DNA of 64,000 nt from the NCBI GenBank assembly GCA_023230925.1, contig JALNWK010000001.1:34781-98780 (forward strand), given 5' to 3'. A model generated the notes under the pieces. That model saw only the letters and a list, made by a program, of their open reading frames with translations, had not been told where the DNA came from and did not search any database. Both the position numbers and the translations under genes were made by a program. The stretch comes from Limnochordia bacterium (GTDB lineage Bacteria; Bacillota; Limnochordia; DUMW01). Position 1 is the stretch's first letter. Each line of letters opens with the position of its first letter. Positions 23,659 through 54,371 of this stretch are shown here, piece by piece.

Positions 23659-23662
23659 GAGC

Positions 23663-24244: not shown

Positions 24245-24640
24245 TTGACGTGGCTTTTAGGAGATTTCAGAGGGCAAACAGAGTCTGACGGGGGAAATGG
24301 ATCCAGAATCCCTTTCCACAAAGGATTCATAATCTATGTGGGGCGCAATAGGTTTGTTGGATGAACGCTGTATATCCTAAAACCTGCGATGCTCCTCTGA
24401 GGGGCAATGGAAAAACCTGTGGGCATTGCATTTTTTGAGGAAGAAGGAAGGATTTAATATGTGACACGACGAATAACACAAAGAAACCTATAAAGGATTA
24501 CGTGTCATACCGGATCGGTCAAGGTTTTCATGAGTGGTATTTCATTTTGATGCCACTTTCAATAGTGATTACTTAGGCCTCCTTATTTGCGCGGGCAATG
24601 AATCACTTTGCCAGATAAGAAAATGAAGAGGTGTAAAAGG

Positions 24641-26659: not shown

Positions 26660-26720
26660 ACAGATGTTCGCGAAGTCTAGGTTCTTTACCGAATTGTTCT
26701 GGTTGAAGGAGGTTAATAGC

Positions 26721-28880
26721 GTGAGGAAAGACAACCTGATTTTGATAGTGTTAACCTGTATGGTCATGATTGGCGTTATAAGCAGTGTTGCAGCTGCAGC
26801 GAGACCCGAGGCGATTCCGCCGGAATATGTCCGGGCAGCTTCTAGTAGGTATCTTGAGTTATATGTCGATATGGATACCGCTAAGTTCATTGTCTACGAT
26901 AGGCGAAACGATAAGGTCTGGCGTACGTCTCCCGAGCCTCACCCGGATATATCAGTAACTGATCTATGGGAAGGACATATTAACTCCAACTTTGTTCTGC
27001 ACTATGTAGACGAGAAGAAGCGGAACCCTCGTCAGACAAACCCGGTCAGCGAGAAAGCCATCATTGATTTTGAGCAGATTCCTAATGGTGTTCGGGTTAG
27101 TTACAATATGAAGGCTAAGTTAGGGATTGCCCTAGCCTTAGATTTCACTCTTGGCGATGATTACCTTGAAGTGACGTTTCCTCCGGAGACTCTTCAAGAA
27201 ACAGGTGAGTTCTACCTGGTAGCGCTGGAAGTTACTCCTTTCTTTGGAGCAGCATGGCCCGATGAGGAGGGTTATCTCTTTATTCCTGATGGTAGCGGAG
27301 CCATAGCTCACTTCCGGGAGGACTTTCCGGATTACTCCAGGGGATTCAACGAGGTAATCTATGGCGAAGATAAGTTTAAATTTCAAACACCCCTTGAGGC
27401 CCTGTTAACCCACCGGAGTCAGGTTGTTATGCCTGTATTTGGGTTAGCAAAAACTGATAAACAGGCGGCTTATCTTGGTGTTGTAACCAAGGGCGAATAC
27501 AACGCATCGATACTAGCAGGGCCAGCAGGATACACTGTCTCTTTGAATCGGATTGGTGCAAGTTTCGCGGTTAGGCGGCAGTACGAGGCTGCGATTCGTC
27601 TGGGGACCTATGTGCCAACGGTCGAGGAGCAAATCATTGATCGTCCCATGCAAGTTAGATACTATTTACTAGCTAATGATGACGCCAACTATGTTGGTAT
27701 GGCCACCGCTTATCGAGAGCACTTGATTGAAGAGCACAATATTCAACCAAGGGATGAGGTGCGCAAGCCGTCTCTGCAGCTTAGGATCTTTGGGGGTCTA
27801 AGCAGAACTGAGGTCCTGTTCAGGGAATTTATCGCTATGACTACCTTTGAACAGACGAAGACCATTGTCACCGCTTTGCAGGAGGCAGGCGTTGACAATA
27901 TTGATGTAGTGTTCTTGGGCTGGAACCTGTACGGATATAACGGTGCGTATCCGAAACGATTGCCCGTAGCAAAGGAACTTGGAGGAAGCGAAGGCTTAAC
28001 AGACCTGGCCAACTTCCTTTCTGAACGGGGATGCAGGCTATTTCTCGAGGACAACTATCTTGATGCCGATAGCGATAACGGGGGATTTAGCAACCGCAGA
28101 GACATTGTTCGGGAACCGAATAAGTTGCCGATGAACCTTGGGGGCCGGTACCTACTAAATCCAATCTATGCCTGGGATCGGTACGCCAAACCCGATCTAA
28201 CCACCCTTAGTACGCTGGGTGTGCATGGTATTCAGTTTAGATATCTTGGAAAAGTGATTCTTACCGATCGCAATTTCGATCATCCATTAACACGGCAAGA
28301 GTTCGTCAGCCAATGGCTCAAGTTGAGTGACTATGCCCGTGAAAAGATGGGCGCTGCAATTGCCGATGGCGGCAATATCTATGCGATTAATAACGTAGAC
28401 GCCTTTACAGACGTGCCGATATATCAAAGCACGTACGATTTTGTTGATAAATCGATTCCGTTTTATCAGATTGTGCTCCATGGCTTTGTACCATACAGTG
28501 CTTATCCAGGGAATTTGAGGAGCGATCCGGAACTAGAGTTTTTACGGATGCTTGAGTATGGTGCACTACCTTGCTTCGAGTTGACGTACCAAGAGCCTGG
28601 GTTGCTACAAGATACACCGTACAATCTGCTATTTAGCTCATACTACGAGCAGTGGCTTCCCAAAGTTGTCGAGGAGTACAATATTGTTGTCAAAGAGCTT
28701 GGTGAGATAGCAGGTCAGTATATCGTTGGCCATGAGTATGTACTACCAAATGTAGTGCGGGTGACCTATGAAAGCGGCACTTCGTTGTTGATTAACTACA
28801 ATGCCGATGCTGTGGAATGGCAGGGTATTATCGTGGATGGAATGGGCTATGCCATCGTCGAGGGGGGCAGCGAGCTATGA
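26721..28880 (+). CDS. Large N-terminally anchored extracellular protein of unknown function. It may correspond to a DUF5696-like family, but this is recalled from memory only.
   Basis: GTG start with GAAGGAGG 7 nt upstream. N-terminal TM helix LILIVLTCMVMIGVISSVAAAA. The remaining roughly 700 residues are soluble, with no catalytic motif I recognise. Its stop overlaps the next gene as ATGA. Confidence 0.55.
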   Translation: MRKDNLILIVLTCMVMIGVISSVAAAARPEAIPPEYVRAASSRYLELYVDMDTAKFIVYDRRNDKVWRTSPEPHPDISVTDLWEGHINSNFVLHYVDEKKRNPRQTNPVSEKAIIDFEQIPNGVRVSYNMKAKLGIALALDFTLGDDYLEVTFPPETLQETGEFYLVALEVTPFFGAAWPDEEGYLFIPDGSGAIAHFREDFPDYSRGFNEVIYGEDKFKFQTPLEALLTHRSQVVMPVFGLAKTDKQAAYLGVVTKGEYNASILAGPAGYTVSLNRIGASFAVRRQYEAAIRLGTYVPTVEEQIIDRPMQVRYYLLANDDANYVGMATAYREHLIEEHNIQPRDEVRKPSLQLRIFGGLSRTEVLFREFIAMTTFEQTKTIVTALQEAGVDNIDVVFLGWNLYGYNGAYPKRLPVAKELGGSEGLTDLANFLSERGCRLFLEDNYLDADSDNGGFSNRRDIVREPNKLPMNLGGRYLLNPIYAWDRYAKPDLTTLSTLGVHGIQFRYLGKVILTDRNFDHPLTRQEFVSQWLKLSDYAREKMGAAIADGGNIYAINNVDAFTDVPIYQSTYDFVDKSIPFYQIVLHGFVPYSAYPGNLRSDPELEFLRMLEYGALPCFELTYQEPGLLQDTPYNLLFSSYYEQWLPKVVEEYNIVVKELGEIAGQYIVGHEYVLPNVVRVTYESGTSLLINYNADAVEWQGIIVDGMGYAIVEGGSEL

Positions 28881-29884
28881 AGAAGGTGCTTAGGAAGATT
28901 GGGGAGTTCCTCGGTATGATTGTAACGGCGATTACGGAGTACTTTGAAGACGTAGTCGCTATAGGTACGGCGGGATTCAAGAAGGTGCCGGGGTTACGTA
29001 ATATTAGCCACTTGTCATTAAGTGCAAAACGTTGTCTAGTGGGCTATATCTTTATACTCCCATGGTTCTTTGGGTTTGTTCGTTATGTGGGATATCCCCT
29101 AATACGATCGTTCATTATTAGTTTCCAAACCGTAGAGAGCCTGTTAGGCTTTAAGATGAAGTGGGTCGGGTTGCAGAATTATGCCGAGGCCTTTTTCGTG
29201 GACGAACGGTTTGTCCCCATGCTATTGGAGGAGATTAGAGATACAGTCCTCGATGTGCCCGTGATTCTTGTGTTTTCGATTTTCGTATCGTACCTGGTAT
29301 GTAAGCCAATTCGTTTCGTGGGTGTTTTCCGGGCGATCTTCTTCTTGCCTGTCGTAGTTGCCTCAGGATTAGTCGTTAAGCAGCTATTTGACCAGGGCGT
29401 TGGTTCAACGATAGGAGTATCTGCCTTTATCGGAAACTTGGGTGTCGCGGATATGGTGTTTACCTACTTTGGAGCCAATGCGGCCACGTACTTCTTAGAC
29501 CTGTTAAACCGAATGACGTTGGTACTGTGGCGTTCTGGAGTCCAGATTCTTTTATTTATTGCGGGGTTCCAAAGCATTGGTTCTAGTTACTATGAGGCAG
29601 CTAGAGTTGACGGTGCCAATGAATGGGAAATGTTTTGGAAAATTAGCCTTCCCATGGTGTCACCGATTATTCTGGTTAACATCATCTATTCTATAGTGGA
29701 TTCCTTTACAGATGTCTTCAACCAGATGATTGACTTTATTAAGAACATCGCCTTTACCGGGCAGTTTCGATTGGGTCTGGCGGCAGCCTTTGGATGGGTT
29801 TATTTTGTGGTCATTTTCTTGCTTATCTTAATCGTACTTGCCAGCTCAAGGAAGTGGGTATTTTACGGTGGAGAACGGGATTAA
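28877..29884 (+). CDS. Carbohydrate ABC transporter permease, MalF/UgpA/LplB-like.
   Basis: EAA loop EAARVDGANEWEMFWKISLPM and six TM helices. ATG overlaps the upstream stop. Confidence 0.85.
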   Translation: MKKVLRKIGEFLGMIVTAITEYFEDVVAIGTAGFKKVPGLRNISHLSLSAKRCLVGYIFILPWFFGFVRYVGYPLIRSFIISFQTVESLLGFKMKWVGLQNYAEAFFVDERFVPMLLEEIRDTVLDVPVILVFSIFVSYLVCKPIRFVGVFRAIFFLPVVVASGLVVKQLFDQGVGSTIGVSAFIGNLGVADMVFTYFGANAATYFLDLLNRMTLVLWRSGVQILLFIAGFQSIGSSYYEAARVDGANEWEMFWKISLPMVSPIILVNIIYSIVDSFTDVFNQMIDFIKNIAFTGQFRLGLAAAFGWVYFVVIFLLILIVLASSRKWVFYGGERD

Positions 29885-29914
29885 GAGTTGGAGAAAGATT
29901 GGGAGGAGACAGGT

Positions 29915-30856
29915 ATGACAAGTATTGCGCAGGCGTTTGGCAGACTGCGGGAGCGTGCTGTCCCGGTTCTAACAGTATGGAGTCATCGGGGTCGGAAGGG
30001 CTTGTTTCAGCTTTTGATTTACATCATCCTGTTTGCGGTAGCGTTTACCTTCTTGCTGCCTATTGTGTATATGACTACGACGGGATTGATGACCATTGAG
30101 GATTACATTGACCCGGGTGTGCATTGGGTTCCGCGCAGCATTAATTGGGAGAACTTTGAGCTTGCTTGGCAAGGATTGCACTATCCAGATGCATTGAAAA
30201 ACAGTGCGATTATTGCGATCTTGGCAGCTGTGGGGCAGGTTATCTCGGCAGGTGTGACCGGATACGCCTTTGGTCGAATGAAGTTTCCTGGACGGGATAT
30301 TCTGTTTGTGTTTTTACTTTTTACCTTCATTGTTCCACCACAGACAATTATTGTTCCGTTGTTTATGTTGTTTAAGGAACTGGAATGGATCGACACCTAT
30401 AATCCATTTATTGTACCGGCATTTTTTGCTCAGGGGTTGCGGGGTTCGTTGTTTGTTCTTATTTTCCGGCAGTTCTTCATGAAGCTTCCCTATGAGCTTG
30501 AGGATGCAGCAAGAATTGATGGATGCGGAGAGTTTCGGACCTTTACCAGTATTATGCTGCCCTTGGCAAGACCGGCCATTTTGGTCACTTTCTTGTTCTC
30601 GTTGGTTTGGCACTGGAATGACTTCTATGAGCCAATGATGTACCTGATGAAGACACAGAAGTTCACGATGCCTTTGCGCTTGAGTATTCTGTGGACTTCG
30701 CTGAATGAATTAACAGGCGGGCAAGCCGGTGATATATACAACCAGCCTTTGATCATGGCTGCATGCTTCCTGGTTATCTTACCTCCACTGATTCTGTATA
30801 TGTTCACACAGCGCTACTTCGTTGAGGGTGTGGAGCGAACAGGACTAGTTGACTAG
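29915..30856 (+). CDS. Carbohydrate ABC transporter permease, MalG/UgpE/LplC-like.
   Basis: EAA loop EDAARIDGCGEFRTFTSIMLPLARPAI. RBS GGAGGAG upstream of ATG 29915. Confidence 0.85.
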   Translation: MTSIAQAFGRLRERAVPVLTVWSHRGRKGLFQLLIYIILFAVAFTFLLPIVYMTTTGLMTIEDYIDPGVHWVPRSINWENFELAWQGLHYPDALKNSAIIAILAAVGQVISAGVTGYAFGRMKFPGRDILFVFLLFTFIVPPQTIIVPLFMLFKELEWIDTYNPFIVPAFFAQGLRGSLFVLIFRQFFMKLPYELEDAARIDGCGEFRTFTSIMLPLARPAILVTFLFSLVWHWNDFYEPMMYLMKTQKFTMPLRLSILWTSLNELTGGQAGDIYNQPLIMAACFLVILPPLILYMFTQRYFVEGVERTGLVD

Positions 30857-30909
30857 TAGTAGAGAATTTGACATGTGGGAGCACAGCAATACGGGTGGGA
30901 GGAGTTCCG

Positions 30910-33066
30910 ATGAATAATCTTGCGAGAACAGGAAAACAGCCTGGAGACAAGAAGCGACTGACAGTCGCTGTTGCTGCAATTGCTGTAGTGGTTATTGTCG
31001 CTGTGGCATTGGTTTTCAGCGGTCGTCCTAAAAACGTCTATAAACTATCGCCTGAATCGGTTACCAAGGTAGCCGTGGCTGGGCGAGTGAATCTAGAACT
31101 GGAAAGAAAAGACCGAGGATGGTTATTGACCGAGCCTATTACCTGGCCGGCGGACGCCACGAGAATGGAGCAAATCATCAGTTTCGTGAGTGGACCGCGT
31201 GGTAGGAAGGCTGGCAGTGCGGGCAGTAACCTGGCCAAGTACGGTCTGGATAACCCGATCGTGAAGGTTGGGGTTGTTGCAGGCTCGGAAAGTCACGTTA
31301 TTCTTATAGGTGGGCGAGTTCCTCGAAAGGCTGCACATTACGTGAAGCTTGAGGAAAACAATAAGGTCTGGGAAGTCAGTGAAGGCGATTTGGGGTTTTT
31401 CACACAACCTGAGACTAGCTACCGTAGCCGTAACCTAGTGGATTTGGATTCCGAGTTAGTTTCCTTGCAGATCGTACGTGGTGAGGAGACTATTGTCCTA
31501 CGCCGGCGGGATGACGGGAAGTGGCAGGTCATCCGACCTATACAGGATGACGGTGACGAAGAGGCCGTCAAGGAGTTGCTCGAGTACCTTGGTTCAGTAC
31601 AGATTCGAGACTTTCTGGATGAACCGGGTGAGTTGAGTGAGTACGGACTTGAGGAGCCCGCGGCAAAAATTATCGCGATTACCGGCGACGGCGAGAAGAT
31701 AGAGGTTAGTATCGGAGATGTTGCCGGACTAGGAGTGCGATATGCCCGTAACGCCGCCTTTGATTCCGTTGTTACCGTTACCGGTGTTCGGTTCGCCCCG
31801 CTGCATATTCAGGCGGAGCAACTAATTGATCAATCTCTCTTAGATTTTGATGTATCCGACGTGGTAGGGCTGCGCATTAGAGATGTGGATAGTGACATAT
31901 CCTTTAGGAAGATCGACGGTGTATGGTATATACATCCCGATACGGATGCTCAGGCAATGGTATTCCATATTAACGCTTTACTTGGTGCTCTGCTAGATGT
32001 CAGAGTAGAGGCAGTGGTTAGCTCCGAGGTGGTTGTCGCCGATGATGAATTGGAGAGCTCTCGGTTTGATGTGGAGTTGGCCGATGGGCGGAAGCTATGG
32101 TTGCGGGTTTTGTTGCCGAAAGAAGGTGTTGGTGAGGGGTTTGTCCAGGTGGCGACCAGACCCCATTATTTCCGGATTTATGAGTTTGCGAGTATGCTCC
32201 TTGCCCGGCGAATCGCCAGTGTAAGCACCAGTATAATTGACCTTCCCATTGAGGATTGTATCGGTTTGCTGGTAATGACGCCTGAAGTAGTTGCTGCTGC
32301 GGGTAAGAAGACTCCAGAACCAGTGGAATTCAAATTTGATGAAGAAAATGCGGTGTGGAAGTCCGGTCGAGACGTCTTCTTTGGTGTTGAGGACTTTTCA
32401 GGAAGCTTAACGGAGATACTTGTGGACCGGGTGGCGCCCAAGCTAGAAAAGGAAGAGGACTACGGGTTCGCGGTGGAAAAGGGTGGCATATGGTATCAGG
32501 CTTCCACGGACAGGGATAGCGTCAAGATGGAGATCGGAGGCGCTACCGAAGAAGGGAAATATCGATATTTGCGTGTATCAGGACGTCCCGACGTATTCTT
32601 GGCTGAGAGCGACTCGATTACTCAGGTTATTGATACCTTTGGCCGGTTGAGGACGAACTTACTACAAATAAATGATGAGTTGCTGGTACGGTTGGAGATT
32701 TACAAGGGCGGTCAGGAGTATAGGGTGGAGAAGTCTGGTGGCAAGTGGTTAGATGTAGGTGCCAGTGATATAGATGCCCTTGTGAAGGCAATGAACCAGA
32801 TCGGTGTTCAGGCGGCTGCGGTTGATGCTGATCCTGAAACGTATAAATTCTATCCGGATCCTGTGGGTGTACGAGTGGTCTTCGTTTACGAAGATGGTTC
32901 CGAGGATAGCATGGATCTTGGTAATCGAATGATGCACGGTGTTGGGTGGTTTGCATCCTACCGTTACTTCCTGCGGGCCACAGGGGACACGGTGTACTAT
33001 GTTGCAGATGCTGTGGGTAAGAGTATCAATACAGCTGTGGACAATTTCATTAAGAAAATCCAGTAA
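30910..33066 (+). CDS. DUF4340-like protein: N-terminal membrane anchor plus repeated extracytoplasmic domains.
   Basis: 718 aa with TM helix LTVAVAAIAVVVIVAVALVF, then about four repeats of roughly 120 aa each (E....W.L..P..W.AD motif). Family name recalled from memory. Confidence 0.55.
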   Translation: MNNLARTGKQPGDKKRLTVAVAAIAVVVIVAVALVFSGRPKNVYKLSPESVTKVAVAGRVNLELERKDRGWLLTEPITWPADATRMEQIISFVSGPRGRKAGSAGSNLAKYGLDNPIVKVGVVAGSESHVILIGGRVPRKAAHYVKLEENNKVWEVSEGDLGFFTQPETSYRSRNLVDLDSELVSLQIVRGEETIVLRRRDDGKWQVIRPIQDDGDEEAVKELLEYLGSVQIRDFLDEPGELSEYGLEEPAAKIIAITGDGEKIEVSIGDVAGLGVRYARNAAFDSVVTVTGVRFAPLHIQAEQLIDQSLLDFDVSDVVGLRIRDVDSDISFRKIDGVWYIHPDTDAQAMVFHINALLGALLDVRVEAVVSSEVVVADDELESSRFDVELADGRKLWLRVLLPKEGVGEGFVQVATRPHYFRIYEFASMLLARRIASVSTSIIDLPIEDCIGLLVMTPEVVAAAGKKTPEPVEFKFDEENAVWKSGRDVFFGVEDFSGSLTEILVDRVAPKLEKEEDYGFAVEKGGIWYQASTDRDSVKMEIGGATEEGKYRYLRVSGRPDVFLAESDSITQVIDTFGRLRTNLLQINDELLVRLEIYKGGQEYRVEKSGGKWLDVGASDIDALVKAMNQIGVQAAAVDADPETYKFYPDPVGVRVVFVYEDGSEDSMDLGNRMMHGVGWFASYRYFLRATGDTVYYVADAVGKSINTAVDNFIKKIQ

Positions 33067-33071
33067 GCAGA

Positions 33072-33100
33072 CGAAGGGGGCGTACGCCCCCTTCGATTTG
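33072..33100 (+). terminator. Strong intrinsic terminator closing the 24.6-33.1 kb operon.
   Basis: Perfect GC-rich stem CGAAGGGGGCG / CGCCCCCTTCG around a tight loop, followed by ATTTGT. Confidence 0.7.
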
Positions 33101-33120
33101 TACTAGAGTACCGTTCTTTC

Positions 33121-33154
33121 AAGAACCTAGGGCCACGCGGAGGTTCTTTTTTTG
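33121..33154 (+). terminator. Second hairpin-plus-U-tract element in tandem with the previous terminator.
   Basis: AAGAACC-(14 nt)-GGTTCTT followed by TTTTTTG. Confidence 0.45.
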
Positions 33155-33271
33155 TTGTGAATGGGGCAATACTAGGGTTAGGAGCGCGTTGTGAGGAACT
33201 TTTCATTGCAGTTGCGAGTCTTGTTGTGATAAACTAGGAAAGTATTAGCGCTGGGGACGGAGGAGATGCGT

Positions 33272-36079
33272 GTGAAGATTAATAGGATTTATGTGCAGAG
33301 GATCAGTGAGCCCCTACAGGCGCGGTTGAGGGAGACTCTTAATTATAGAGGGTACAACGTTGTGGCTTGTAAGATTGAACGGGTCTATCGGTTAGAGGGC
33401 CAGTTCGATGAGGCCGGGTTAATCGATCTTTTGGTCAACCCAGTCTATGAGACGTGGTCCCCGAAGAGTAAACTTGATCCTGAGGAAGGGCCTATTGTTG
33501 AGATTAGCTATAATCGGGCGGTGATCGATCCGGAGACGATTTCGATTCTAGAGGGTGCTAGGGCCGTTGGCACTGACGGTGTGAAGTGGGCTCGTTTGAA
33601 CTACCGCTATCAGTTTGTGGGAGTGTCTGAGGAAGAGGCAGAGAGGATTGCACAGGATGAATTGTATAATCCTGTTATCCAAAAGATTCTGCGAGAAGAA
33701 TGGGATAGCCTGCTACCGTCGGGGGAGAGCGATCCGGTACGGAAGATCGATTTAAGCAGGTGCTCCGATGAAGAATTGATAAGTATATCCGAGGAAAACT
33801 CATGGTATGCCTCTTTGCAGCAAATGAAGGTACTACAGGAGTATCAGCAGGAATTGGGTCGTCCCTTTACCGATGCAGAAATTGAGATTGTGGTCCAAAG
33901 CTGGAGTGATCATTGCTATCATACCACGTGGAAAGCTTTGGGACTACTCAAGAAGCTAAAGAATGCCACCCTAGCCATAGATCATCCCTTGATGGTGTCG
34001 GTGTTTACAGATAACGCTGGTGGTATGGAATTTTATGATGATTGGGTTGTAACCATTAAAGGCGAGACCCACAATTTTCCAAGTTCTATTTCACCCTTTG
34101 GTGGCGTAGCCACAAAACATGGGGGAGTAATCCGTGATACAGTGGGTTTTGGCAAGGGTGCCTATCCCATCGGTGGTAGCACCATCATGGGTACCATGGA
34201 TCCGAGTACGTTGAAGGGACAAGTTCCTTTAGGAGCCCTGCACCCACGGACAATCCTTAAGGAAGCTATCCGAGCAACGGTATTTTACTGTAATCCTATG
34301 GGTATTCCTATGATGTACAGTGCCTATAGAAAGCATCGAAATTACCCGAAGTGCTTAGCGTTAGGGCATTCGATCGGAATACTGCCCCGAAAATATGCCC
34401 TTAAAGATGAGGTTCAGCCTGGGGATTTGGTAGTACTCCTTGGTGGACGGACGGGCAGGGATGGACTGCATGGTGCAACGGCAAGTTCCGCCACCATGAG
34501 CAGAGAGGTCACAGAAAAAGAGGCCGCGGCAGTGCAGATCGGCGACCCCTTAACCGAAGGCAAGTTTATGGAGGCGATCCCCCAATTGCGCGACGCTGAA
34601 TGTATTCGTGCCATTACCGACTTGGGCGCGGGGGGGATTTCGTGTGGGGCCGGAGAGATGGGTGCAGATACGGGGGTTACTCTAGATTTGGATCAGGTGC
34701 CCTTGAAATATCCAAGTCTGTCCGCTTGGGAGATCCTTCTGTCTGAGTCCCAGGAGCGTATGTTACTTGGAGTGCCCGCCGAAAAGATAGGGCAGGTAGG
34801 GCAGATTTTGAAGAAGTATGATGTAGAAATGTCGGTGATCGGAAAGTTTACGGATACGAACCGTTTTCAAGCTACGTGGCAAGGCCAGACTGTCGTTGAT
34901 ATTGAAATGGACTTTCTATGGGGCAAGTGTCCCATCGAACCAATCAGCATTAAAGAACCACAGCAGAAGCAGACCGAAGAGGATGTGGAGGCACCAACAA
35001 GCCTTGCCCAGGTGAAGAAGTCAATTAAACAGGTGCTATCGCATTACCATTGCTGCGACCAATCGCCCGCTGGATTCCAGTTTGACTCAAGTGCCCAGGG
35101 CAGAACTGTCCTTGGACCCTTTGGGGGACAGACCGGTAGAATGCCCACCGGTGCCTTTGTATCGGCGCCCCTTTGGGGAAAACCCTATGGTGTTGTCAGT
35201 ACGTTGGCGTATAACCCCTTTTATGGTGATGTGGATCCTGTGGGGTTGGCCCGACTGATGATGATCGAAGCCATTAGTAAAGCAGTTGCGGTTGGTGCTG
35301 ATCCTGCGGCTATCGCCCTATGCGATAACTTCTACACACCCCGCTGTAACCAAGAGGTTGGTTGGATGCTGAAGGCCATGGTGGAGACCATTTCTGATCT
35401 TTCAGTAAAGCTAAACACCCCATTTATCTCAGGCAAAGACTCAAGTTCCGGTACGTTCGTTTCCAAAGATGGACAAGTCATCGATGTTCCCTATACTTTT
35501 GCAGTGTCGACACTGGGACGGATGCCCGATGTCCGCAAAATGGTAACCAAGGAATTCAAAGGAACAGGAAGCCAAATTGTCCTTGTGGGTACGCTGGATC
35601 CAGAGAAGCTTGGGGGGTCAGTTTACCTCGACTGCTATGGCAAGCGAGGTAATGAACTGGCTGACGTAGCCCATGAACAGATCAGTAGCCTAAGAGAGCT
35701 GTGGGGGACCATTTACCGGACGTATCAAGGGGAGGATAACCCGATTCTTGCAGCAACAGCCATTGGAGAAGGTGGATTGTTCGTTAGGCTCTTTGAAATG
35801 TGTTACGGAGCAGGATGGGGTGCCCAATTGGACCTAGATGCATTACCTGCAGGACGGCTGGACGGGAAGCTATTTAGCGAGGCAGTTGGTGCTTTGTTAG
35901 TGGAGATGCCGACCAGTGTGGATCCTGGAACGGTGTTTTCAGGGTTTCCTTGGCAGGTGATCGGTCAGACCTTGGACGAGCCAGTTATTCAACTACGATT
36001 TGGCTCCGAAAAACTTGATTTACCCATGGATGAGTTAGTCTGCGCCTGGGAGAGTACCTTTAAGGAGATGATCGTGTGA
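33272..36079 (+). CDS. purL: Phosphoribosylformylglycinamidine (FGAM) synthase-like protein with two N-terminal PurS-like domains fused to a small-PurL-type body.
   Basis: Two roughly 65-aa PurS-like repeats (ending LLVNPVYETW and ELYNPVIQKI), then PurL motifs: SDHCYHTTWK, ETHNFPSSISPFGGVATKHGGVIRD, GGRTGRDGLHGAT, VQIGDP, LLSESQERMLL. GTG start with GGAGGAG 8 nt upstream; ATG 33266 is the alternative. Confidence 0.75.
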   Translation: MKINRIYVQRISEPLQARLRETLNYRGYNVVACKIERVYRLEGQFDEAGLIDLLVNPVYETWSPKSKLDPEEGPIVEISYNRAVIDPETISILEGARAVGTDGVKWARLNYRYQFVGVSEEEAERIAQDELYNPVIQKILREEWDSLLPSGESDPVRKIDLSRCSDEELISISEENSWYASLQQMKVLQEYQQELGRPFTDAEIEIVVQSWSDHCYHTTWKALGLLKKLKNATLAIDHPLMVSVFTDNAGGMEFYDDWVVTIKGETHNFPSSISPFGGVATKHGGVIRDTVGFGKGAYPIGGSTIMGTMDPSTLKGQVPLGALHPRTILKEAIRATVFYCNPMGIPMMYSAYRKHRNYPKCLALGHSIGILPRKYALKDEVQPGDLVVLLGGRTGRDGLHGATASSATMSREVTEKEAAAVQIGDPLTEGKFMEAIPQLRDAECIRAITDLGAGGISCGAGEMGADTGVTLDLDQVPLKYPSLSAWEILLSESQERMLLGVPAEKIGQVGQILKKYDVEMSVIGKFTDTNRFQATWQGQTVVDIEMDFLWGKCPIEPISIKEPQQKQTEEDVEAPTSLAQVKKSIKQVLSHYHCCDQSPAGFQFDSSAQGRTVLGPFGGQTGRMPTGAFVSAPLWGKPYGVVSTLAYNPFYGDVDPVGLARLMMIEAISKAVAVGADPAAIALCDNFYTPRCNQEVGWMLKAMVETISDLSVKLNTPFISGKDSSSGTFVSKDGQVIDVPYTFAVSTLGRMPDVRKMVTKEFKGTGSQIVLVGTLDPEKLGGSVYLDCYGKRGNELADVAHEQISSLRELWGTIYRTYQGEDNPILAATAIGEGGLFVRLFEMCYGAGWGAQLDLDALPAGRLDGKLFSEAVGALLVEMPTSVDPGTVFSGFPWQVIGQTLDEPVIQLRFGSEKLDLPMDELVCAWESTFKEMIV

Positions 36080-36792
36080 GTAAGCCGACTATCGCAGTGT
36101 TATATGCGCCTGGTACTACAGCCCATACCGAGACCGCTTTAGCCGTTGAACTTGCGGGCGGTCTGGGCGAGGTCGTTCTGCTAAGCGATCTCATATCTAA
36201 GGACCGTAGTCTCGATGATTACCAGGGGTTGGTGATTCCTGGGGGGTTCTCGTGGGGAGATCATATTGCACCAGGTCGAGTTTTCGCAGCCCATCTCATT
36301 CATCATCTATACGATGATTTAGTGAGACTACGAGAGAAAGGACGGCCCCTGCTTGGAATCGGAAACGGATTTCAAGTCCTCTGTGAAACGGGGATACTGC
36401 CAGATCAACAGATCGGCAAGCGCTCATTAGCCTTGCTGGAGAATGAATCCGGGAAGGCAGAGAATCGTTGGGTCGTTTTGAAGGTGGCTGATAGTAACCA
36501 ACCTTGGTTGCAAGGCTTTCCGCAGGAGTTTTCCATGCCTGTAAGCTGTAGTGCTGGCAGGCTGAGTAGCGAAAATGTTCAGCCCGCCTTCTTATATGTA
36601 GATACGGAAGGACGACCTACAGAGGAGTACCCCCAGAACCCAACTGGGTCCCGTGGTGGTATTGCCGGAGTTATTGATTCGTCGGGTCTAGTCCTTGGCA
36701 TGATGCCGCATCCTGAGCGAGTCTGTAATAATGTCCAGGGTTGTGCAGTGGGTCTTAGGGTATTTGCTAATATGATCGCCATGTTGGAGTAG
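36076..36792 (+). CDS. purQ: PurQ-like class-I glutamine amidotransferase subunit.
   Basis: 238 aa, GATase1-like (IAVLYAPGTT...GGFSWGD...MMPHPER). Start overlaps the purL-like stop as GTGA/ATGA. Confidence 0.75.
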   Translation: MSKPTIAVLYAPGTTAHTETALAVELAGGLGEVVLLSDLISKDRSLDDYQGLVIPGGFSWGDHIAPGRVFAAHLIHHLYDDLVRLREKGRPLLGIGNGFQVLCETGILPDQQIGKRSLALLENESGKAENRWVVLKVADSNQPWLQGFPQEFSMPVSCSAGRLSSENVQPAFLYVDTEGRPTEEYPQNPTGSRGGIAGVIDSSGLVLGMMPHPERVCNNVQGCAVGLRVFANMIAMLE

Positions 36793-37011
36793 GTTGCTTC
36801 GACCGGGAAGCTGCATATTTGCTCTGCTTCGTAGCTCGGGTTGTGCGAGCCATGCGCTGAAGGTCGCGAATTGAGCGAAGTACCATCCGCCAATGGCTTA
36901 CCTTACCGCTAAAGGATGCAATTCCGTACTGGTCCATACTAAACCTCCTCTCGTTCCCAATGCCATTATTGGCCGAAAAGGGGAAGATTATACATTAAGT
37001 TCGGAATAGAA

Positions 37012-37046
37012 GCGGTGGACGTTTTTTGTTCACCGCTCGTTTTTCT
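37012..37046. terminator. Intrinsic terminator after purQ, possibly bidirectional.
   Basis: GCGGTGGAC-gtttttt-GTTCACCGC (9-bp stem with one G-U pair), followed by TCGTTTTTCT. Confidence 0.55.
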
Positions 37047-37289: not shown

Positions 37290-38276
37290 GTGCAAGTAAC
37301 GATTATTGGGGCAGGCAGCTGGGGAACAGCCTTAGCTTACTTAGTAGCCAGCAAAGGACATCAAGTTGTCCTTTGGTCTCGACGAAATGAGGTAGCTTGT
37401 GAGATTAACCGGACTCGGGTAAATGCGACGTATCTACCAGTAGCTCTTCCTTCTTGTGTCAGGGCGACTTCCTGCATCGAGGAAGCCATAGACAGCACCG
37501 GGTTGATCATTTTGACTGTACCTTCTCAGAATATTAGAGGTGTGCTTCAGCAAATGACAGGTCTGGTGGATTCCAAAGTTCCCATCGTGCATGGTGCTAA
37601 GGGGATCGAGATTTCCACTCAGCTTCGGATTTCCCAGGTGGCCGAAGAAGTACTAGGTCGTCCCATAGCTGCCTTATCTGGTCCGAATCATGCAGAGGAA
37701 GCTGCAAATAACATGCCCACCGCTTCTGTGGTGGCCTTTGACGATCTGGGTACTGGCAAGGTTATTCAGGAGATCCTAAGTACTGACCGCTTCCGGGTCT
37801 ATGTAGAAAGGGATGTCGTTGGAGTCGAACTAGGGGGAGCGCTAAAAAACGTGATTGCCTTGGCCGCAGGAATCAGTGACGGACTAGGCTATGGGGATAA
37901 TACCAAAGCGGCCCTGATTACCCGGGGGCTTGCAGAGATTGTCCGGCTAGGGGTGCGTCTTGGCGCGGAGCCTCTGACTTTCTCAGGGCTTTCAGGTCTT
38001 GGGGATCTCGTTGCCACGTGTAGTAGTAAGTGGAGCCGTAACCGAAATGCTGGCGAGAAGATCGGGAAAGGCTGCGACCTGCAAGAGGTCCTTGCCGGGC
38101 CAATGGTGGTAGAAGGCGTTTACACCACCACTGCGGCCTGCCGGTTAGCAGAAACGATAGGTGTTGAACTGCCCATCGCCTCTACCCTAGAGAGGGTGCT
38201 TGGGGGCAGCGTCTCCCCCAAAGCAGCCGTTGATGAACTAATGACAAGACAGCTTAAGCTAGAAAGACCTTTCTAG
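37290..38276 (+). CDS. gpsA: NAD(P)H-dependent glycerol-3-phosphate dehydrogenase.
   Basis: VTIIGAGSWGTALA Rossmann motif and GpsA family length. GTG 37290 with GGGGTGG 7 nt upstream is preferred over the track ATG 37263, which would sit at the predicted transcription start of the TGgTATAAT promoter at 37246-37254. Confidence 0.8.
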   Translation: MQVTIIGAGSWGTALAYLVASKGHQVVLWSRRNEVACEINRTRVNATYLPVALPSCVRATSCIEEAIDSTGLIILTVPSQNIRGVLQQMTGLVDSKVPIVHGAKGIEISTQLRISQVAEEVLGRPIAALSGPNHAEEAANNMPTASVVAFDDLGTGKVIQEILSTDRFRVYVERDVVGVELGGALKNVIALAAGISDGLGYGDNTKAALITRGLAEIVRLGVRLGAEPLTFSGLSGLGDLVATCSSKWSRNRNAGEKIGKGCDLQEVLAGPMVVEGVYTTTAACRLAETIGVELPIASTLERVLGGSVSPKAAVDELMTRQLKLERPF

Positions 38277-39925
38277 CCCGTTGGTAGTTGATTATTGATC
38301 GCCTGGTAGGACCGCCATCCTCCCGAGATATTCAAAACGTCATAGCCCTTCTGCTTTAGGATCCGGGTGGCGAGATAGGATCTGCGGCCAACTGCGCAGT
38401 AGACCATAATCTGCTTAGATTTTGGGATCTCAAAGATGCGCTCCCGCAGTTCATCCACGGGGATGTTTACTGCTCCCTCCACATGACCGGCTTGAAATTC
38501 CCATGCTGTACGGACGTCAATAAGCATGTTGGCCTCATTAAGGGTCAAATCCTGCCAGTGAATGACGGGCATGTCATTATTGATGATGTTCCCTGCCACA
38601 TACCCAGCCATGTTTACAGGATCCTTTGCCGAGGAAAAGGGAGGAGCATAGGCTAGCTCTAATCCCTGTAGATCAAACACGGTTCCCCCAAAGCGAATCG
38701 CGGTAGCCAACACATCAATACGCTTGTCCACACCGGTGAAGCCTACGATCTGGCCACCAAGGATGTTCCCACTTTGTGGATCAAACAACAGCTTAATACT
38801 CATGGGCCGTGCCCCGGGATAATAACTGGCATGGGATTCTGAGTGGGTATAGGACTTCTCATAGGGAATGCCCAACTCCCTTAGATTCCTCTCAGTGCTT
38901 CCCGTTGCCGCGGCCGTAAGCTCAAAGAGCTTAATAATCATTGTTCCCTGGGAGCCGTTGTAGGTTTCAGTCTTGCCACAAATGTTGTTAGCGGCAATCC
39001 GACCCATTTTGTTCGCGGGACCAGCTAGGGGCATATAGGCTGGGTGCCCAGTAACGAAGTCTGTTACCGCGATGGCATCACCAACCGCATAAATCCAAGG
39101 ATCCGAGGTGCGCAGGAATTCATCGGTAACAATGGCTCCCCATTCATTGATGGCTAATCCAGCGGTCTGGGCCAAGTTGGTATTTGGCGTAACCCCGATT
39201 CCTAGGACCACGAGGTCAGCTGGGAGTTTCTTTCCACTTGCAAGGGTGACCATACTGGTATCAGCATCGTGGTTCATAGTCGTCACAGTATTATTGAGAT
39301 ACAACTTGATGCCCTGCTTTTTCAAGTATCCATGGACAATACCAGCCATGTCTTGATCGATCGCTCCTAGGACTTGGGGAGCCATTTCAACGATGGTTAC
39401 CTGGCAACCTAAGTGCTGTAGATTCTCCGCCATCTCAAGCCCGACAAATCCGCCGCCGACTATCACTGCATTCTTGGGTTGGTTATCGGAAACAAAAGCC
39501 TTGATGCGATCGGTATCGGAGATATTCCGCACAGAAAATACCCTGTGGTGTTCAATTCCTGGTATAGGTGGGGCCACTGGTTCTGCGCCGGGCGAGAGAA
39601 TTAGATAGTCATATTCCTCAACATATTCCCGACCGGAATCAAGCTCGCAGACTGTAACCGCCTTATTCCCCCGGTCAATCTTGGTAACCTCATTCTTGGT
39701 TCGTATATCAAGGTTGAAGCGTTGACTCATCCCTATGACGCTCTGCACGAAGAGACGGTCCCGCTCTTCGATCACCCCACCGATATAGTAAGGAAGGCCG
39801 CAGTTGGCATAGGAAATGTATTCATCCCTCTCAAAGATTACAATTTCCATAGATTCATCAAGCCTGCGTAAGCGAGCGGCCGCCGAAACACCCCCTGCTA
39901 CTCCACCAACAATAAGGACCTTCAT
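38273..39925 (-). CDS. Pyridine-nucleotide-disulfide oxidoreductase (CoA-disulfide reductase / NADH oxidase type) with a C-terminal rhodanese domain.
   Basis: KVLIVGGVAGGVSAAARL FAD motif and active-site YISYANCGLPYYIGG. The C-terminal roughly 100 aa carry the rhodanese CAVGRRS active-site Cys loop. Confidence 0.8.
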   Translation of the reverse strand: MKVLIVGGVAGGVSAAARLRRLDESMEIVIFERDEYISYANCGLPYYIGGVIEERDRLFVQSVIGMSQRFNLDIRTKNEVTKIDRGNKAVTVCELDSGREYVEEYDYLILSPGAEPVAPPIPGIEHHRVFSVRNISDTDRIKAFVSDNQPKNAVIVGGGFVGLEMAENLQHLGCQVTIVEMAPQVLGAIDQDMAGIVHGYLKKQGIKLYLNNTVTTMNHDADTSMVTLASGKKLPADLVVLGIGVTPNTNLAQTAGLAINEWGAIVTDEFLRTSDPWIYAVGDAIAVTDFVTGHPAYMPLAGPANKMGRIAANNICGKTETYNGSQGTMIIKLFELTAAATGSTERNLRELGIPYEKSYTHSESHASYYPGARPMSIKLLFDPQSGNILGGQIVGFTGVDKRIDVLATAIRFGGTVFDLQGLELAYAPPFSSAKDPVNMAGYVAGNIINNDMPVIHWQDLTLNEANMLIDVRTAWEFQAGHVEGAVNIPVDELRERIFEIPKSKQIMVYCAVGRRSYLATRILKQKGYDVLNISGGWRSYQAINNQLPTG

Positions 39926-40157: not shown

Positions 40158-40892
40158 ATGATGAAGGTATCAAGACAGGCACCACAATTTGCCCCTGTAA
40201 GTAAGACTAAGGTCTATGAGCACATTATCTCCCAGATTAAAGAGCTGATCTATACTGGAAAGCTAAAACGAGGTGACAGGTTACCTGCGGAGCGTACGTT
40301 GACCGAACAGCTTCGGGTATCACGGGCATCGGTACGGGAAGCTTTTAGCGCTTTGGAGATGATCGGTCTTATTGAAAGTAAGCCCAGGGATGGTACATAC
40401 ATTGCAGCTAACAGTCAAGGCATGGTGGAGCCCCTTTCGTTAGCGTTCATGCTGCAGGAGAACTTTGAGCCTGCATTTCTCGAGTTTAGACGGATTCTTG
40501 AGGTGGAGGCTGCCAGGCTTGCCGCCACAAGAATAACCCAAGAACGCTTGACGGACCTAACACAGCTAGTAGAGCAGATGGCCCTTGCCGATGAAGCTAA
40601 CAGTATAGAAGCGGATAGACGGTTCCATTACCGTCTGAGTGTGGCTTCGAACAATCCGATTTTAGTGACGGTCCTTGATGCCATTTCCGATGTAATCGAT
40701 CTTAGTATCCGCACCCATCGAGAGAACCTTTTTGCTGATGAACAACTTAAGGAACGGTTAGTGGAACAGCATCGACAGATTCTTGTGGCGGTTAGTCAAA
40801 GGGATCCAGATAATACTGCGGTAGCGGTAGAACGACACTTTCAGTTTGTTGAAGAGCGGATACAGACTCTAGGATGGACTCAAAGGGAATAA
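40158..40892 (+). CDS. GntR/FadR-family transcriptional regulator (FCD domain), LctA-like.
   Basis: GntR winged-HTH segment (LPAERTLTEQLRVSRASVREAFSALE) followed by an FCD-type C-terminus. It sits directly upstream of the etfBA/LDH genes. Confidence 0.8.
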   Translation: MMKVSRQAPQFAPVSKTKVYEHIISQIKELIYTGKLKRGDRLPAERTLTEQLRVSRASVREAFSALEMIGLIESKPRDGTYIAANSQGMVEPLSLAFMLQENFEPAFLEFRRILEVEAARLAATRITQERLTDLTQLVEQMALADEANSIEADRRFHYRLSVASNNPILVTVLDAISDVIDLSIRTHRENLFADEQLKERLVEQHRQILVAVSQRDPDNTAVAVERHFQFVEERIQTLGWTQRE

Positions 40893-40936
40893 TCATATTT
40901 GTGGTCTGACCATCAGGCCAGTCGGAGGTGTACTGC

Positions 40937-41725
40937 TTGAATATCTTAGTATGTATCAAACAGGTTCCCGAGACCAGGGATGTGGAGGTGGATGAGAACA
41001 CCGGTGTTCTAAAGCGTGAGGGTGTTGATAGCAAGATGAACCCCTTTGACCTTTATGCATTAGAGGCAGGGGTACAGCTTAAAGAGCGTTACGGTGGAAA
41101 GGTGACAGTCATTAGTATGGGTCCTCCCCAAGCCGCTGCAGTGCTCAAAGAAGCGTACATGATGGGGGCTGATGCAGGTATACTCATGTCGGATCGAAAA
41201 TTTGCTGGTGCGGATACATTGGCAACTGCCTTTACTTTAGCTCAGGGGATTGGACGAAGTGGCAGCTTTGATCTAATCCTGTGTGGCAAACAGACCACCG
41301 ATGGGGATACTGCCCAAGTTGGTCCGGGCATCGCGGAATTTTTGGACTTACCCCATGTATCCTATGTTAGCTCTATCCTTGCTCTTGATGCTGATTACAT
41401 AACCGTGGAAAAGGACCTTACCGATGGCATTCAGGTCTGCCGAGTGCATTTACCCTGCTTACTTACCCTGATGGAAACAGCAAACCAACCGAGACTTCCT
41501 TCCTATAGGTTGAGACTTGCCACCTCAGGGCGTCCTATCGAGGTGGTAAGTTATAAGGATTTACCTCCTGTGAAAACAGAATACTACGGTCTAGACGGTT
41601 CACCCACCCAAGTGGAACGGATCTTCCCTCCCGAGAGCCACCGGGATAGGATTGTTTATCACGGAGAACCCGACGAGATCGCAAACCAGCTATACGTACA
41701 ACTCAAAGAACATAGATTCATCTAA
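40937..41725 (+). CDS. etfB: Electron transfer flavoprotein beta subunit.
   Basis: LNILVCIKQVPET...NPFD...G start typical of EtfB. TTG 40937 with GGAGG 8 nt upstream. Confidence 0.85.
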   Translation: MNILVCIKQVPETRDVEVDENTGVLKREGVDSKMNPFDLYALEAGVQLKERYGGKVTVISMGPPQAAAVLKEAYMMGADAGILMSDRKFAGADTLATAFTLAQGIGRSGSFDLILCGKQTTDGDTAQVGPGIAEFLDLPHVSYVSSILALDADYITVEKDLTDGIQVCRVHLPCLLTLMETANQPRLPSYRLRLATSGRPIEVVSYKDLPPVKTEYYGLDGSPTQVERIFPPESHRDRIVYHGEPDEIANQLYVQLKEHRFI

Positions 41726-41738
41726 GGGGGCATCCATT

Positions 41739-42941
41739 GTGCTTCGGGTCAACTACGAAAAGTGTAACCTGTGCGGTCGCTGCATGGAGGTTTGTCCCTT
41801 CGGCGGCATTGGAATAATGGCAGACCAGGTGATCATTAATGAAAAATGCCGGTTGTGCCGACAGTGTATTAAACACTGTCCAACAGGCGCTTTGTCTTTG
41901 TCTAAATCAACTAAGGGCCTAGTTAACGATGCCGAGTGGCAAGGTGTTTTGGTCTTCGCCGAGCAATCGGGTGGTGTGATTCACCCGGTGACTTATGAAT
42001 TGATCGGTAAGGGAAGGGAGCTGGCGAAAAAGCTCGGCCAACCCCTGAACTGTGTTCTTATTGGATACCAGGTGAGGGGTAAAGCTGCTGAGTTGTTGAA
42101 GTACGGGGTAGAAAAGGTCTATGTATATGATTACCCAGAACTTGAATACTACTCCATCGAACCCTTCGCGGCGGCCATCGCCGCAGCCATCGAGAAAACA
42201 CAACCCAACATCCTTTTGATTGGCGCTACCTCCATCGGCAGGTCCCTGGCGCCACGGTTGGCTGTGCGTTTTAGGACAGGCTTAACAGCCGATTGTACTG
42301 TTTTGGATGTTAAAGAAAACGGTGACCTGATACAGATTCGTCCGGCTTTTGGGGGGAACATTATGGCGCAAATTGTCACTCCCCACCACCGACCACAGAT
42401 GGCTACAGTCCGGTATAAGGTGATGGAACCGGCCAAGGCAGACTCATGTTCCAAAGGAGAAGTGGTTTCCTGCTTCATTAACCAAAGTAAACTTGCTTCA
42501 CGGGTTACGGTCCTCCAAGCAACACCCAAGCCGGAGGAGGCGAGCATTACTGATGCAGAGGTTATTGTGGCAGTGGGAAGGGGTATTCGCACCGAAGGGG
42601 ATCTCAATCTGGCCTTGGAGTTGGCCCACCTTTTAGGGGGGCAGCTTGGTGCTACCCGACCATTGATTGAGTGTGGATGGCTACCGTATACCCGTCAAAT
42701 TGGCCTTAGTGGGCGTACGGTAAGGCCGAAGCTCTTGATTGCTTGCGGCATTTCCGGGGCCGTGCAGTTCGTAGCGGGGATGTCCAATGCCGAGCAGATC
42801 TACGCCATCAATTCGGATCCCAATGCCCCCATCTTTAACGTGGCAACCCATGCTATTATCGGTGATCTTTACCAAGTTATACCAAGGCTAATTCAATTGA
42901 TTAAAGGAGAGGGTATCCGTGTCTTGGAAGAAGTTAACTGA
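41739..42941 (+). CDS. etfA: Electron transfer flavoprotein alpha subunit with an N-terminal 2x[4Fe-4S] ferredoxin domain.
   Basis: [12 protein letters not shown] and [12 protein letters not shown] cluster motifs, then the EtfA body with FAD-binding C-terminus ([17 protein letters not shown]). GTG start with AAGGGGG upstream. Confidence 0.85.
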
Positions 42942-44310
42942 AGAAGATCTAGCCAGGCTAAGGGAAATATGTGCTCCCGAGCGTGTTTTCGTTAACGAAG
43001 ACATCAACGAGGATTACGCCCATGATGAGTTAGCTGAAGTACGGTCTTTTCCGGAGGTATTGGTGGAACCTCTAACCACTGAGGAAGTAGCCGAGCTCAT
43101 GACATACGCCTATGAAAACAACATTCCCGTTACTCCCCGGGGTGCGGGCACGGGGTTATGCGGTGGAGCTGTTCCAATTCACGGTGGCATATTGCTTTCC
43201 ACAACAAAGATGAATAGCATCATCGAAATAGACGAAGCTAATCTAACAGCTACGGTACAGCCGGGGATTCTCCTCATGGAGTTTCGGGATGTGGTGGAGG
43301 AAAGAGGGTTGTTCTACCCACCGGACCCGGGGGAAAAAAGCGCTACAATCGGTGGTAATATCATGACCAACGCAGGTGGTATGCGCGCAGTTAAGTACGG
43401 TGTTACCAGAGACTATGTCTTAGGTCTTGAAGTGGTATTACCTACGGGAAGGATCATACGAACTGGTGGCAAGATCGTAAAGAACAGTTCTGGGTACAGT
43501 CTCCACAATCTGTTAATCGGTTCCGAGGGGACCCTTGGGATTATCACGGAAGTGATCCTCAAGTTGCTGCCCAAACCCAAGAAACAGATTAGCCTTCTTA
43601 TTCCCTTCGAAAACCTTAATTTAGCCATTAGCACAGTGCCAAAGATCATCCAGTCAAAAGTTATTCCCACAGCCATTGAATTTATGCAGCAGGATGTGAT
43701 TCTTGCCGCCGAGGAGTACCTAGGTAAGCGTTTCCCAGACAAATCTGCGACGGCCTATTTACTTTTGGCCTTTGATGGTAATTCCAATGAAGAACTAGAA
43801 TCGGTATATGAACTAGTGGCCGACATTGCCCTAGTCTCCGGAGCCCAAGATGTTCTAATCGCGGATAGTACTGAACGACAGGAACTAATTTGGGAGGCCC
43901 GGGGGGCATTTTTAGAGGCCCTAAAGGCCATGAGCGATATGGACGAAGTTGATGTAGTGGTGCCCAGGGACAAAATTGCGGAATTTGTTGCCTACACGAA
44001 TAAGCTTGCTGAGGAAAGCGAGATTCGTATACTTAGTTTTGGTCACGCAGGTGATGGTAATCTGCACGTATATATCCTCAGAGACGATCTACCCGAACAG
44101 GTTTGGCGTCCACAGATGGAGCAGTTAATGAAGAAGATGTACGATCATGCCAAGGAGCTAGGTGGCCAAGTCTCCGGTGAACACGGTATTGGTTATGCAA
44201 AACGTAGGTACTTGGAGGATTCATTGGGAACGGTGCAAATTGAGCTGATGCAAGGGATTAAAAGGGCCTTCGATCCCAAGGGTATTCTCAATCCAAGTAA
44301 AGTAATCTGA
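42919..44310 (+). CDS. FAD-binding oxidoreductase of the GlcD / D-lactate dehydrogenase family (LctD-like).
   Basis: FAD-binding PCMH domain ([13 protein letters not shown]) and a C-terminal 4-type domain. Overlaps etfA by 23 nt. Confidence 0.85.
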
Positions 44311-54357: not shown

Positions 54358-54371
54358 TGGGAGGACCTAAT

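Follow-up and report, generated by a model that had tools for sequence, protein, structure and literature searches.

In a 64-kb stretch of a Limnochordia bacterium metagenome-assembled genome (MAG), hereafter the window (contig JALNWK010000001.1, positions 34,781 to 98,780), two overlapping genes, purSL and purQ, belong to a locus type for formylglycinamidine ribonucleotide (FGAM) synthetase, the enzyme of purine step 4. PurSL reads as two PurS-like modules fused to a PurL body of the small type, an architecture confirmed mainly by its modeled fold, and its partner is a PurQ homologue in which glycine stands at the position of the catalytic cysteine. The explanation that we favor, and to which we give roughly an even chance, is that the pair is a bicistronic FGAM synthetase fed by free ammonia, in which PurQ persists in a structural capacity.

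In such an enzyme the two PurS-like modules would form a pseudo-dimeric N-terminal domain, replacing the PurS dimer of the PurS2-PurL-PurQ complex or the N-domain of single-chain PurL, and the small-PurL body would activate formylglycinamide ribonucleotide (FGAR) with ATP and add ammonia. PurQ would be devoid of glutaminase activity in the window lineage, PurSL would still make FGAM with nitrogen drawn from free ammonia, and PurQ would be retained as a structural or allosteric partner.

The PurSL chain

The original prediction described a small-PurL body that keeps its catalytic motifs, including the histidine of HNxPS, and all of these align to the PurL proteins of Thermus and Thermotoga (WSDHC, ETHNFPS, GGVIRD, GGRTGRDGLHGA, VQIGDP, DLGAGG and SESQERM), with the motifs of the second half also kept. 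Pfam assigns AIRS_C in two stretches (expectation value (E) 2.4e-40), AIRS and the FGAR-AT linker to PurSL, and its best NCBIfam models are those of small PurL (TIGR01736, 444.9 bits; NF002290, 431 bits). The large-PurL models TIGR01735 and TIGR01857 yield 224-313 bits, with cut-offs above 1000, and judged by these scores the body is nearer to small than to large PurL (445 versus 224-313 bits). Residues 191-936 of PurSL align with residues 16-723 of Thermus PurL (3VIU) at E 2.8e-52, and the modeled chain matches the same structure in Foldseek with a target-normalized template modeling (TM) score of 0.86.

At the level of single residues, counting along the motifs places a histidine of PurSL at the position of Salmonella H296 and a threonine at that of T310. 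A sub-region search for the equivalent of Salmonella D657, at the mouth of the channel, returned matches to Thermotoga only. Of the 307 alignment positions with conservation of 95% or more among 119 homologues, PurSL departs from the consensus at 18; none of these 18 lies in a core motif, and most of the departures are also present in the nearest relative. At the VQxGDP site (residue 427, numbered from the ATG at 33266) most homologues have Gly-His-Pro, and the window protein has the canonical Gly-Asp-Pro.

Ahead of this body two tandem PurS-like modules had been proposed, the second aligned to PurS of Bacillus subtilis. For module 2 the sequence support is firm, and the alignment holds at profile level: the NCBIfam PurS model NF005019 matches residues 78-140 (E 3.5e-9), with the Pfam PurS model reaching 19 bits, below its cut-off of 22.2. 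For module 1 it is weak; a 13-sequence profile ranks B. subtilis PurS at the top with a non-significant E of 0.36, and a single-sequence search of the N terminus against sequences in the PDB gave only noise (NDUFS4, E about 0.4). Because sequence alone gives no proof of module 1, a fold model was needed. AlphaFold2 models were obtained for full-length PurSL (36 sequences; predicted local distance difference test score (pLDDT) 82, predicted TM score 0.86) and for its N-terminal 188 residues (pLDDT 90). In both, the order beta-alpha-beta-beta-alpha-beta occurs twice, at residues 3-63 and 75-139, followed by three linker helices. The two modules also align with each other in hhalign (E 0.003) over 56 columns in register, pairing DPEA with DPET and NPV with NPV.

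The structural fit of the PurS-PurS N terminus onto the N-domain of Salmonella PurL that had been suggested was run, and the two superpose. In Foldseek the whole PurSL model matches large PurL from Salmonella and human with query-normalized TM scores of 0.84-0.87, compared with 0.66 for Thermus small PurL, which has no N-domain. These models support a covalently fused pseudo-dimer of PurS-like modules that superposes on the N-domain of single-chain PurL, and it is mainly on the predicted fold that the PurS-PurS-PurL fusion is confirmed. The fusion offers a natural confirmation that the N-domain of large PurL equals a fused PurS dimer; as the architecture is already catalogued, its value lies mainly in annotation.

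The PurQ partner and its active site

The original prediction placed a PurQ-like glutaminase gene across the 3' end of purSL. The 4-nt overlap and the PurQ-like nature of the product stand, with a match to GATase_5 (PF13507) at E 8.5e-51 and an alignment to Thermotoga PurQ at E 4e-27, but the label of glutaminase probably does not, the catalytic cysteine being gone. Where PurQ proteins have the elbow G-x-C-N-G-x-Q, the window protein reads GIGNGFQ, with Gly-96 at the position that is cysteine in B. subtilis PurQ, Thermotoga PurQ and Salmonella PurL. The cysteine is present in 117 of 118 other PurQ partners of PurSL-type proteins, the remaining one having serine.

The glycine is not the only change. 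Of the 73 columns with 95% conservation or more, 12 are altered in the window PurQ, and the differences cluster at the nucleophile, at the gate pair and at the HGEG motif, where Asn-Cys-x-Glu has become Thr-Ala-x-Thr and Ala-His-Gly-Glu has become Ser-Cys-Ser-Ala. In Salmonella PurL the residues equivalent to the gate pair, N1051 and S1052, gate the mouth of the ammonia channel and hold the oxyanion strand in place (PMC7124931). The oxyanion strand itself, GGFSxGD, is kept as PGGFSWGD. A syntenic relative, L006, whose PurQ is 71% identical, shares Gly-96 and the loss of the gate pair and has Ser-Cys-Arg-Ala at the HGEG motif. Because of Gly-96 and the losses at the gate pair and HGEG, PurQ is most likely without thioester-based glutamine hydrolysis, and to judge from its residues the window protein probably cannot act as a thioester-forming glutaminase. 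We found no report of a bacterial PurQ without the catalytic cysteine in the searchable literature.

A sequencing or assembly error at Gly-96 was considered and rejected, since two changes separate the codon GGA from TGY, L006 has GGC, and glycine is found in every independent assembly of both clusters. Proteins at least 90% identical to the window PurQ come from four Limnochordia bacterium MAGs. MAGs of this species hold the proteins MCK9221060.1, MDD2629200.1, MDD4517634.1 and MGI6166284.1, and that of the relative holds HHV43990.1.

The serine-bearing partner noted above (P0123, 243 aa, on a JGI contig of 5750 bp beside the PurSL protein P0008) is the next nearest PurQ to that of the window, at 56% identity. 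It reads GISNGYQ at the elbow and carries N15S and E160D, and its lineage is the second in which the glutaminase site is weakened.

In the comparison of the window with L006, synonymous sites have reached saturation (proportion of synonymous differences about 0.77) and protein identity is 71-75%. Nonsynonymous divergence is 0.17 for purSL and 0.23 for purQ, compared with 0.18 for gpsA and 0.32 for the DUF4340 gene; the values for the pair are similar to that of gpsA and, with synonymous sites saturated, show that purSL and purQ are both under purifying selection, and pseudogene decay of either was rejected on that ground. The loss of a catalytic residue is what a pair decaying in a purine auxotroph would be expected to show, yet both reading frames are intact, two species keep the start/stop overlap, the proteins have kept the identity given above with synonymous sites saturated, and the PurSL motifs are untouched, so that we regard such decay as very improbable. 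Measured against outgroups (72-79 sequences), PurSL identity is 0.55 in the window lineage versus 0.57-0.61 in its sisters, and PurQ identity is 0.46-0.48 versus 0.55-0.57; as estimated from these alignments, there is a burst of change in PurQ and none in PurSL.

Selection on PurQ would also be expected if the protein were still a working amidotransferase that had been rewired, with Cys-158 (in place of the HGEG histidine) or an activated water acting as nucleophile beside His-212 and Glu-214. Cys-158 is common to the window and its 71% identical relative, and His-212 and Glu-214 are kept in both; retention of two residues in only two sequences carries little weight. Residues N15, C16, E18, H158 and E160, which belong to the glutamine pocket and the gate, have gone together, and their joint loss fits lost substrate binding better than a moved nucleophile. 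We accordingly hold a rewired amidotransferase to be improbable.

Taken together, these data lead us to infer that glutaminase activity has been lost, that the enzyme draws on free ammonia and that PurQ serves structurally, the ammonia-fed synthesis of FGAM because the synthetase is untouched and a neighboring lineage has serine for the same cysteine. The small PurL of B. subtilis is reportedly active with ammonia in the absence of PurQ. The serine variant hints that the glutaminase has been repeatedly dispensable in the clade. A stronger form of this reading, which we put forward only tentatively and expect to be somewhat less probable than its negation, is that a naturally glutaminase-dead PurQ has become indispensable to an ammonia-fed FGAM synthetase as its structural or allosteric subunit; it would be a bacterial pseudo-amidotransferase in core purine synthesis. 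Herpesvirus vGAT pseudoenzymes (PMC7605207) and crenarchaeal PurF' (PMC3261824) are, like the window PurQ, retained homologues of purine amidotransferases without the catalytic cysteine, but neither the proteins nor their settings are the same; an ammonia-dependent role has been proposed for PurF' (PMC3261824). An ammonia-fed enzyme may be a Limnochordia adaptation to ammonia-rich habitats. If the reading is correct, the pair would offer a natural system that separates the structural from the catalytic roles of an amidotransferase subunit, and it could serve as a marker of adaptation to high ammonia.

Distribution and relatives of the pair

By protein search, PurSL has relatives in more than 100 clusters, 926-981 aa long and 55-62% identical to it over the full length. 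A scan of species-representative genomes with six peptide patterns, all taken from the window PurSL, found 153 relatives, all of them in MAGs labeled Armatimonadota, Terriglobia/Acidobacteriota or Bacillota except for a few whose labels appear to be wrong. Searched against 1.84 billion proteins, a profile of the N-domain retrieved 471 cluster representatives; those that are full-length measure about 890-1030 aa. Wherever the sequence of a related locus extends far enough, purQ lies directly 3' of purSL; the surrounding genes vary by lineage, and other pur genes were absent from the loci examined. The view of the pair as a peculiar stand-alone case has thus to be given up, as the same protein of 930-950 aa with purQ recurs regularly in many MAGs of Armatimonadota, Terriglobia and Limnochordia-like Bacillota and is widespread in the clade, a spread that the original prediction had itself counted among the grounds for seeing in the fusion merely the local canonical form.

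In a neighbor-joining tree of PurSL, the window and L006 are sister to the Firmicutes-labeled MAG L090, and next outward come one Bacillota MAG and a few Armatimonadota-labeled MAGs. L006 was deposited as a Firmicutes/Bacillota bacterium, and Bacillota is the phylum to which the class Limnochordia belongs. In L090 the pair again stands alone, beside addAB and acetate kinase, and its PurQ is normal and bears the cysteine. The Bacillus-type pur operon that had served as a yardstick for this locus proved unsuitable, the host being a Limnochordia MAG whose nearest PurSL relatives are also stand-alone pairs.

Annotation of the family is uneven. JGI names one homologue PurSL, and KEGG lists a PurSL orthologue and accepts PurSL plus PurQ as one form of purine step 4. 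At NCBI, where their scores fall below the PurL cut-offs, members carry the names "AIR synthase-related protein" or "hypothetical protein" for that reason, and pathway reconstructions for Armatimonadota, Terriglobia and Limnochordia may therefore wrongly report this step as missing.

The closest published counterpart is mdPurL, described in six methanogens as a small-PurL body with about 200 extra N-terminal residues and an adjacent purQ, five of these genomes lacking purS (Brown et al. 2011, Biol Direct 6:63, PMC3261824). Like the window PurSL, it carries an N-terminal extension of about 200 aa at the site of the PurS-like domain of large PurL and has a separate adjacent purQ. In contrast to the window, the published cases are archaeal and are likened to it by layout, and their PurQs keep the catalytic cysteine; a PurS-like N-domain was only suspected in that paper, whereas that of the window PurSL is backed by a structure model. 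Our literature search on PurSL returned nothing relevant, with mdPurL appearing in one paper only, and a search on purine biosynthesis in Limnochordia found nothing.

Two further systems frame the architecture. The PurS2-PurL-PurQ complex (Thermotoga maritima, 3D54; B. subtilis) has the same parts, with the same implied 2:1:1 stoichiometry, but in the window the two PurS units are fused to each other and to PurL, and PurQ has no cysteine nucleophile. Compared with single-chain large PurL (Salmonella, 1T3T; human PFAS, 9N9W), the glutaminase homologue of the window is a separate polypeptide, the purSL reading frame ending at 36079. The original prediction saw in this an evolutionary intermediate; the layout does lie between the three-protein and the one-chain enzyme, but with 153 relatives and the names PurSL and mdPurL already given to it, the form is neither rare nor novel. 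We conclude firmly that PurSL plus PurQ is an FGAM synthetase locus type that is usual in its clade and known already from archaea, although NCBI annotates it insufficiently.

Whether the window pair is itself an ammonia-fed FGAM synthetase has to be weighed against several observations. PurSL falls short of the equivalog cut-offs of both small-PurL models (444.9 against 525.75 bits for TIGR01736; 431 against 648 bits for NF002290), as PurQ does for TIGR01737 (155.6 against 177.8 bits). Glycine at the nucleophile position is confined to two species-level lineages. Both members of this lineage keep His-212 and Glu-214 and have the new Cys-158 near the active site, and given these residues some altered catalysis by PurQ is conceivable. 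Finally, the genome may hold a second, canonical FGAM synthetase, in which case PurSL is perhaps not the working one.

Separate purS, purQ and purL genes in pur operons are common in Bacillota, to which the host belongs, and the pair could then be a redundant paralogue, an alternative close to the recruited paralogue of the original prediction: a canonical purS-purQ-purL set elsewhere would make FGAM, and PurSL-PurQ, having lost its glutaminase, would have taken on another role, for example a further ATP-dependent amidation that draws on a different nitrogen source, or regulation. The degradation of the PurQ active site at several positions together is compatible with this, as are the shortfalls of both proteins against the equivalog cut-offs, and one archaeon is known to have mdPurL, purS and a decayed extra purQ (Brown et al., PMC3261824). 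Yet PurSL shows no extra divergence and its catalytic motifs are unaltered, and the window contains no further sequence resembling PurL or PurQ. The sister MAG L090, moreover, has the same pair with a normal PurQ, and the pair therefore looks inherited as a housekeeping enzyme. We consider a redundant paralogue unlikely, although still a serious candidate, and retain the ammonia-fed FGAM synthetase as the preferred explanation.

Gene layout and neighboring genes

The open reading frame that contains purSL spans 33266-36079, with an ATG at 33266 and a GTG at 33272. In the alignment of the 119 homologues the initiator methionine of 114 sits on the GTG, which we take as the start; a ribosome-binding site precedes it. 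This start agrees with the original prediction, and the product has 935 rather than 936 aa. The JGI gene call for the purSL protein (P0001, 905 aa) misses about 30 residues at the beginning and thereby truncates PurS module 1. The overlap with purQ is formed by the GTG at 36076 and the TGA of purSL at 36077-36079. Terminator-like hairpins stand on both sides of the two genes, which for that reason look like a separate transcription unit (Table 1).

Table 1. Coordinates of the purSL-purQ locus and its surroundings, in window positions
Feature	Coordinates	Strand	Description	Basis
Upstream block	20608-33066	+	GH106-like rhamnosidase, NHL-repeat protein, DUF5696, two ATP-binding cassette (ABC) permeases, 732-aa DUF4340 protein; syntenic in L006	
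Terminator-like hairpins (two)	33072..33147	+	33072-33095 and 33129-33147, in the gap that separates purSL from the DUF4340 gene upstream	Consensus matches only
Ribosome-binding site	33259..33265	+	GGAGGAG, 6 nt 5' of the purSL GTG	Read from sequence; start set by 119-homologue alignment
purSL	33272..36079	+	935 aa plus stop: two PurS-like modules, linker, small-PurL body	
PurS-like module 1	33272..33469	+	aa 1-66; strands 3-10, 32-43, 60-63; helices 14-25, 47-54	
PurS-like module 2	33488..33691	+	aa 73-140; strands 75-80, 104-116, 137-139; helices 87-98, 120-131	
Linker	33692..33916	+	aa 141-215; helices 166-175, 182-195, 201-215; counterpart of the FGAR-AT linker in large PurL	
FGAM-synthetase body	33917..36076	+	Small-PurL type, AIRS/AIRS_C half present in duplicate; His214 (WSDHC) and His267 (ETHNFPS) conserved	
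purQ-like gene	36076..36792	+	238 aa; class I amidotransferase fold without the nucleophile cysteine	
Thr15-Ala16	36118..36123	+	In place of the conserved Asn-Cys pair; equivalent to Salmonella PurL N1051-S1052	
Gly96	36361..36363	+	Codon GGA; aligns with the catalytic Cys (B. subtilis PurQ C86; Salmonella PurL C1135)	
Ser157-Cys158-Ser159-Ala160	36544..36555	+	In place of the conserved A-H-G-E of the HGEG motif	
His212-Pro-Glu214-Arg215	36709..36720	+	Triad His and Glu and gate Arg kept	
Terminator-like hairpin	37011..37037	+	3' of purQ, 5' of gpsA	Consensus match only

Rfam matched no part of the window, and none of its families matched the leader region of purSL (32900-33400) even at E up to 1; a riboswitch or other leader RNA upstream of purSL was therefore rejected.

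The pair had been described as lying outside any pur operon, between an envelope operon and gpsA. The gpsA gene does lie downstream of purQ, and no pur gene occurs between 19 and 57 kb of the window (about 14 kb upstream and 20 kb downstream of the pair) or in about 7 kb of the source contig beyond one window end. The upstream block, by contrast, is a carbohydrate (sugar)-uptake cluster rather than an envelope operon, as its glycoside hydrolase and ABC permeases indicate.

Further downstream, the minus strand at 38273-39925 encodes a 550-aa pyridine-nucleotide disulfide oxidoreductase with a C-terminal rhodanese domain, resembling coenzyme A-disulfide reductase; it is absent from L006, where a GntR gene directly follows gpsA. 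On the plus strand, a GntR/FCD regulator, EtfB, an EtfA with a ferredoxin domain and a flavin adenine dinucleotide-linked oxidase stand in a row at 40158-44310, in an order kept in L006, and look like an electron-bifurcating lactate or glycolate dehydrogenase cluster. A third group on the same strand (52355-56771) comprises an open reading frame without a Pfam match (52355-53155), a LarC-type nickel-insertion protein (53146-54357) and a LonC-like AAA protease (54357-56771).

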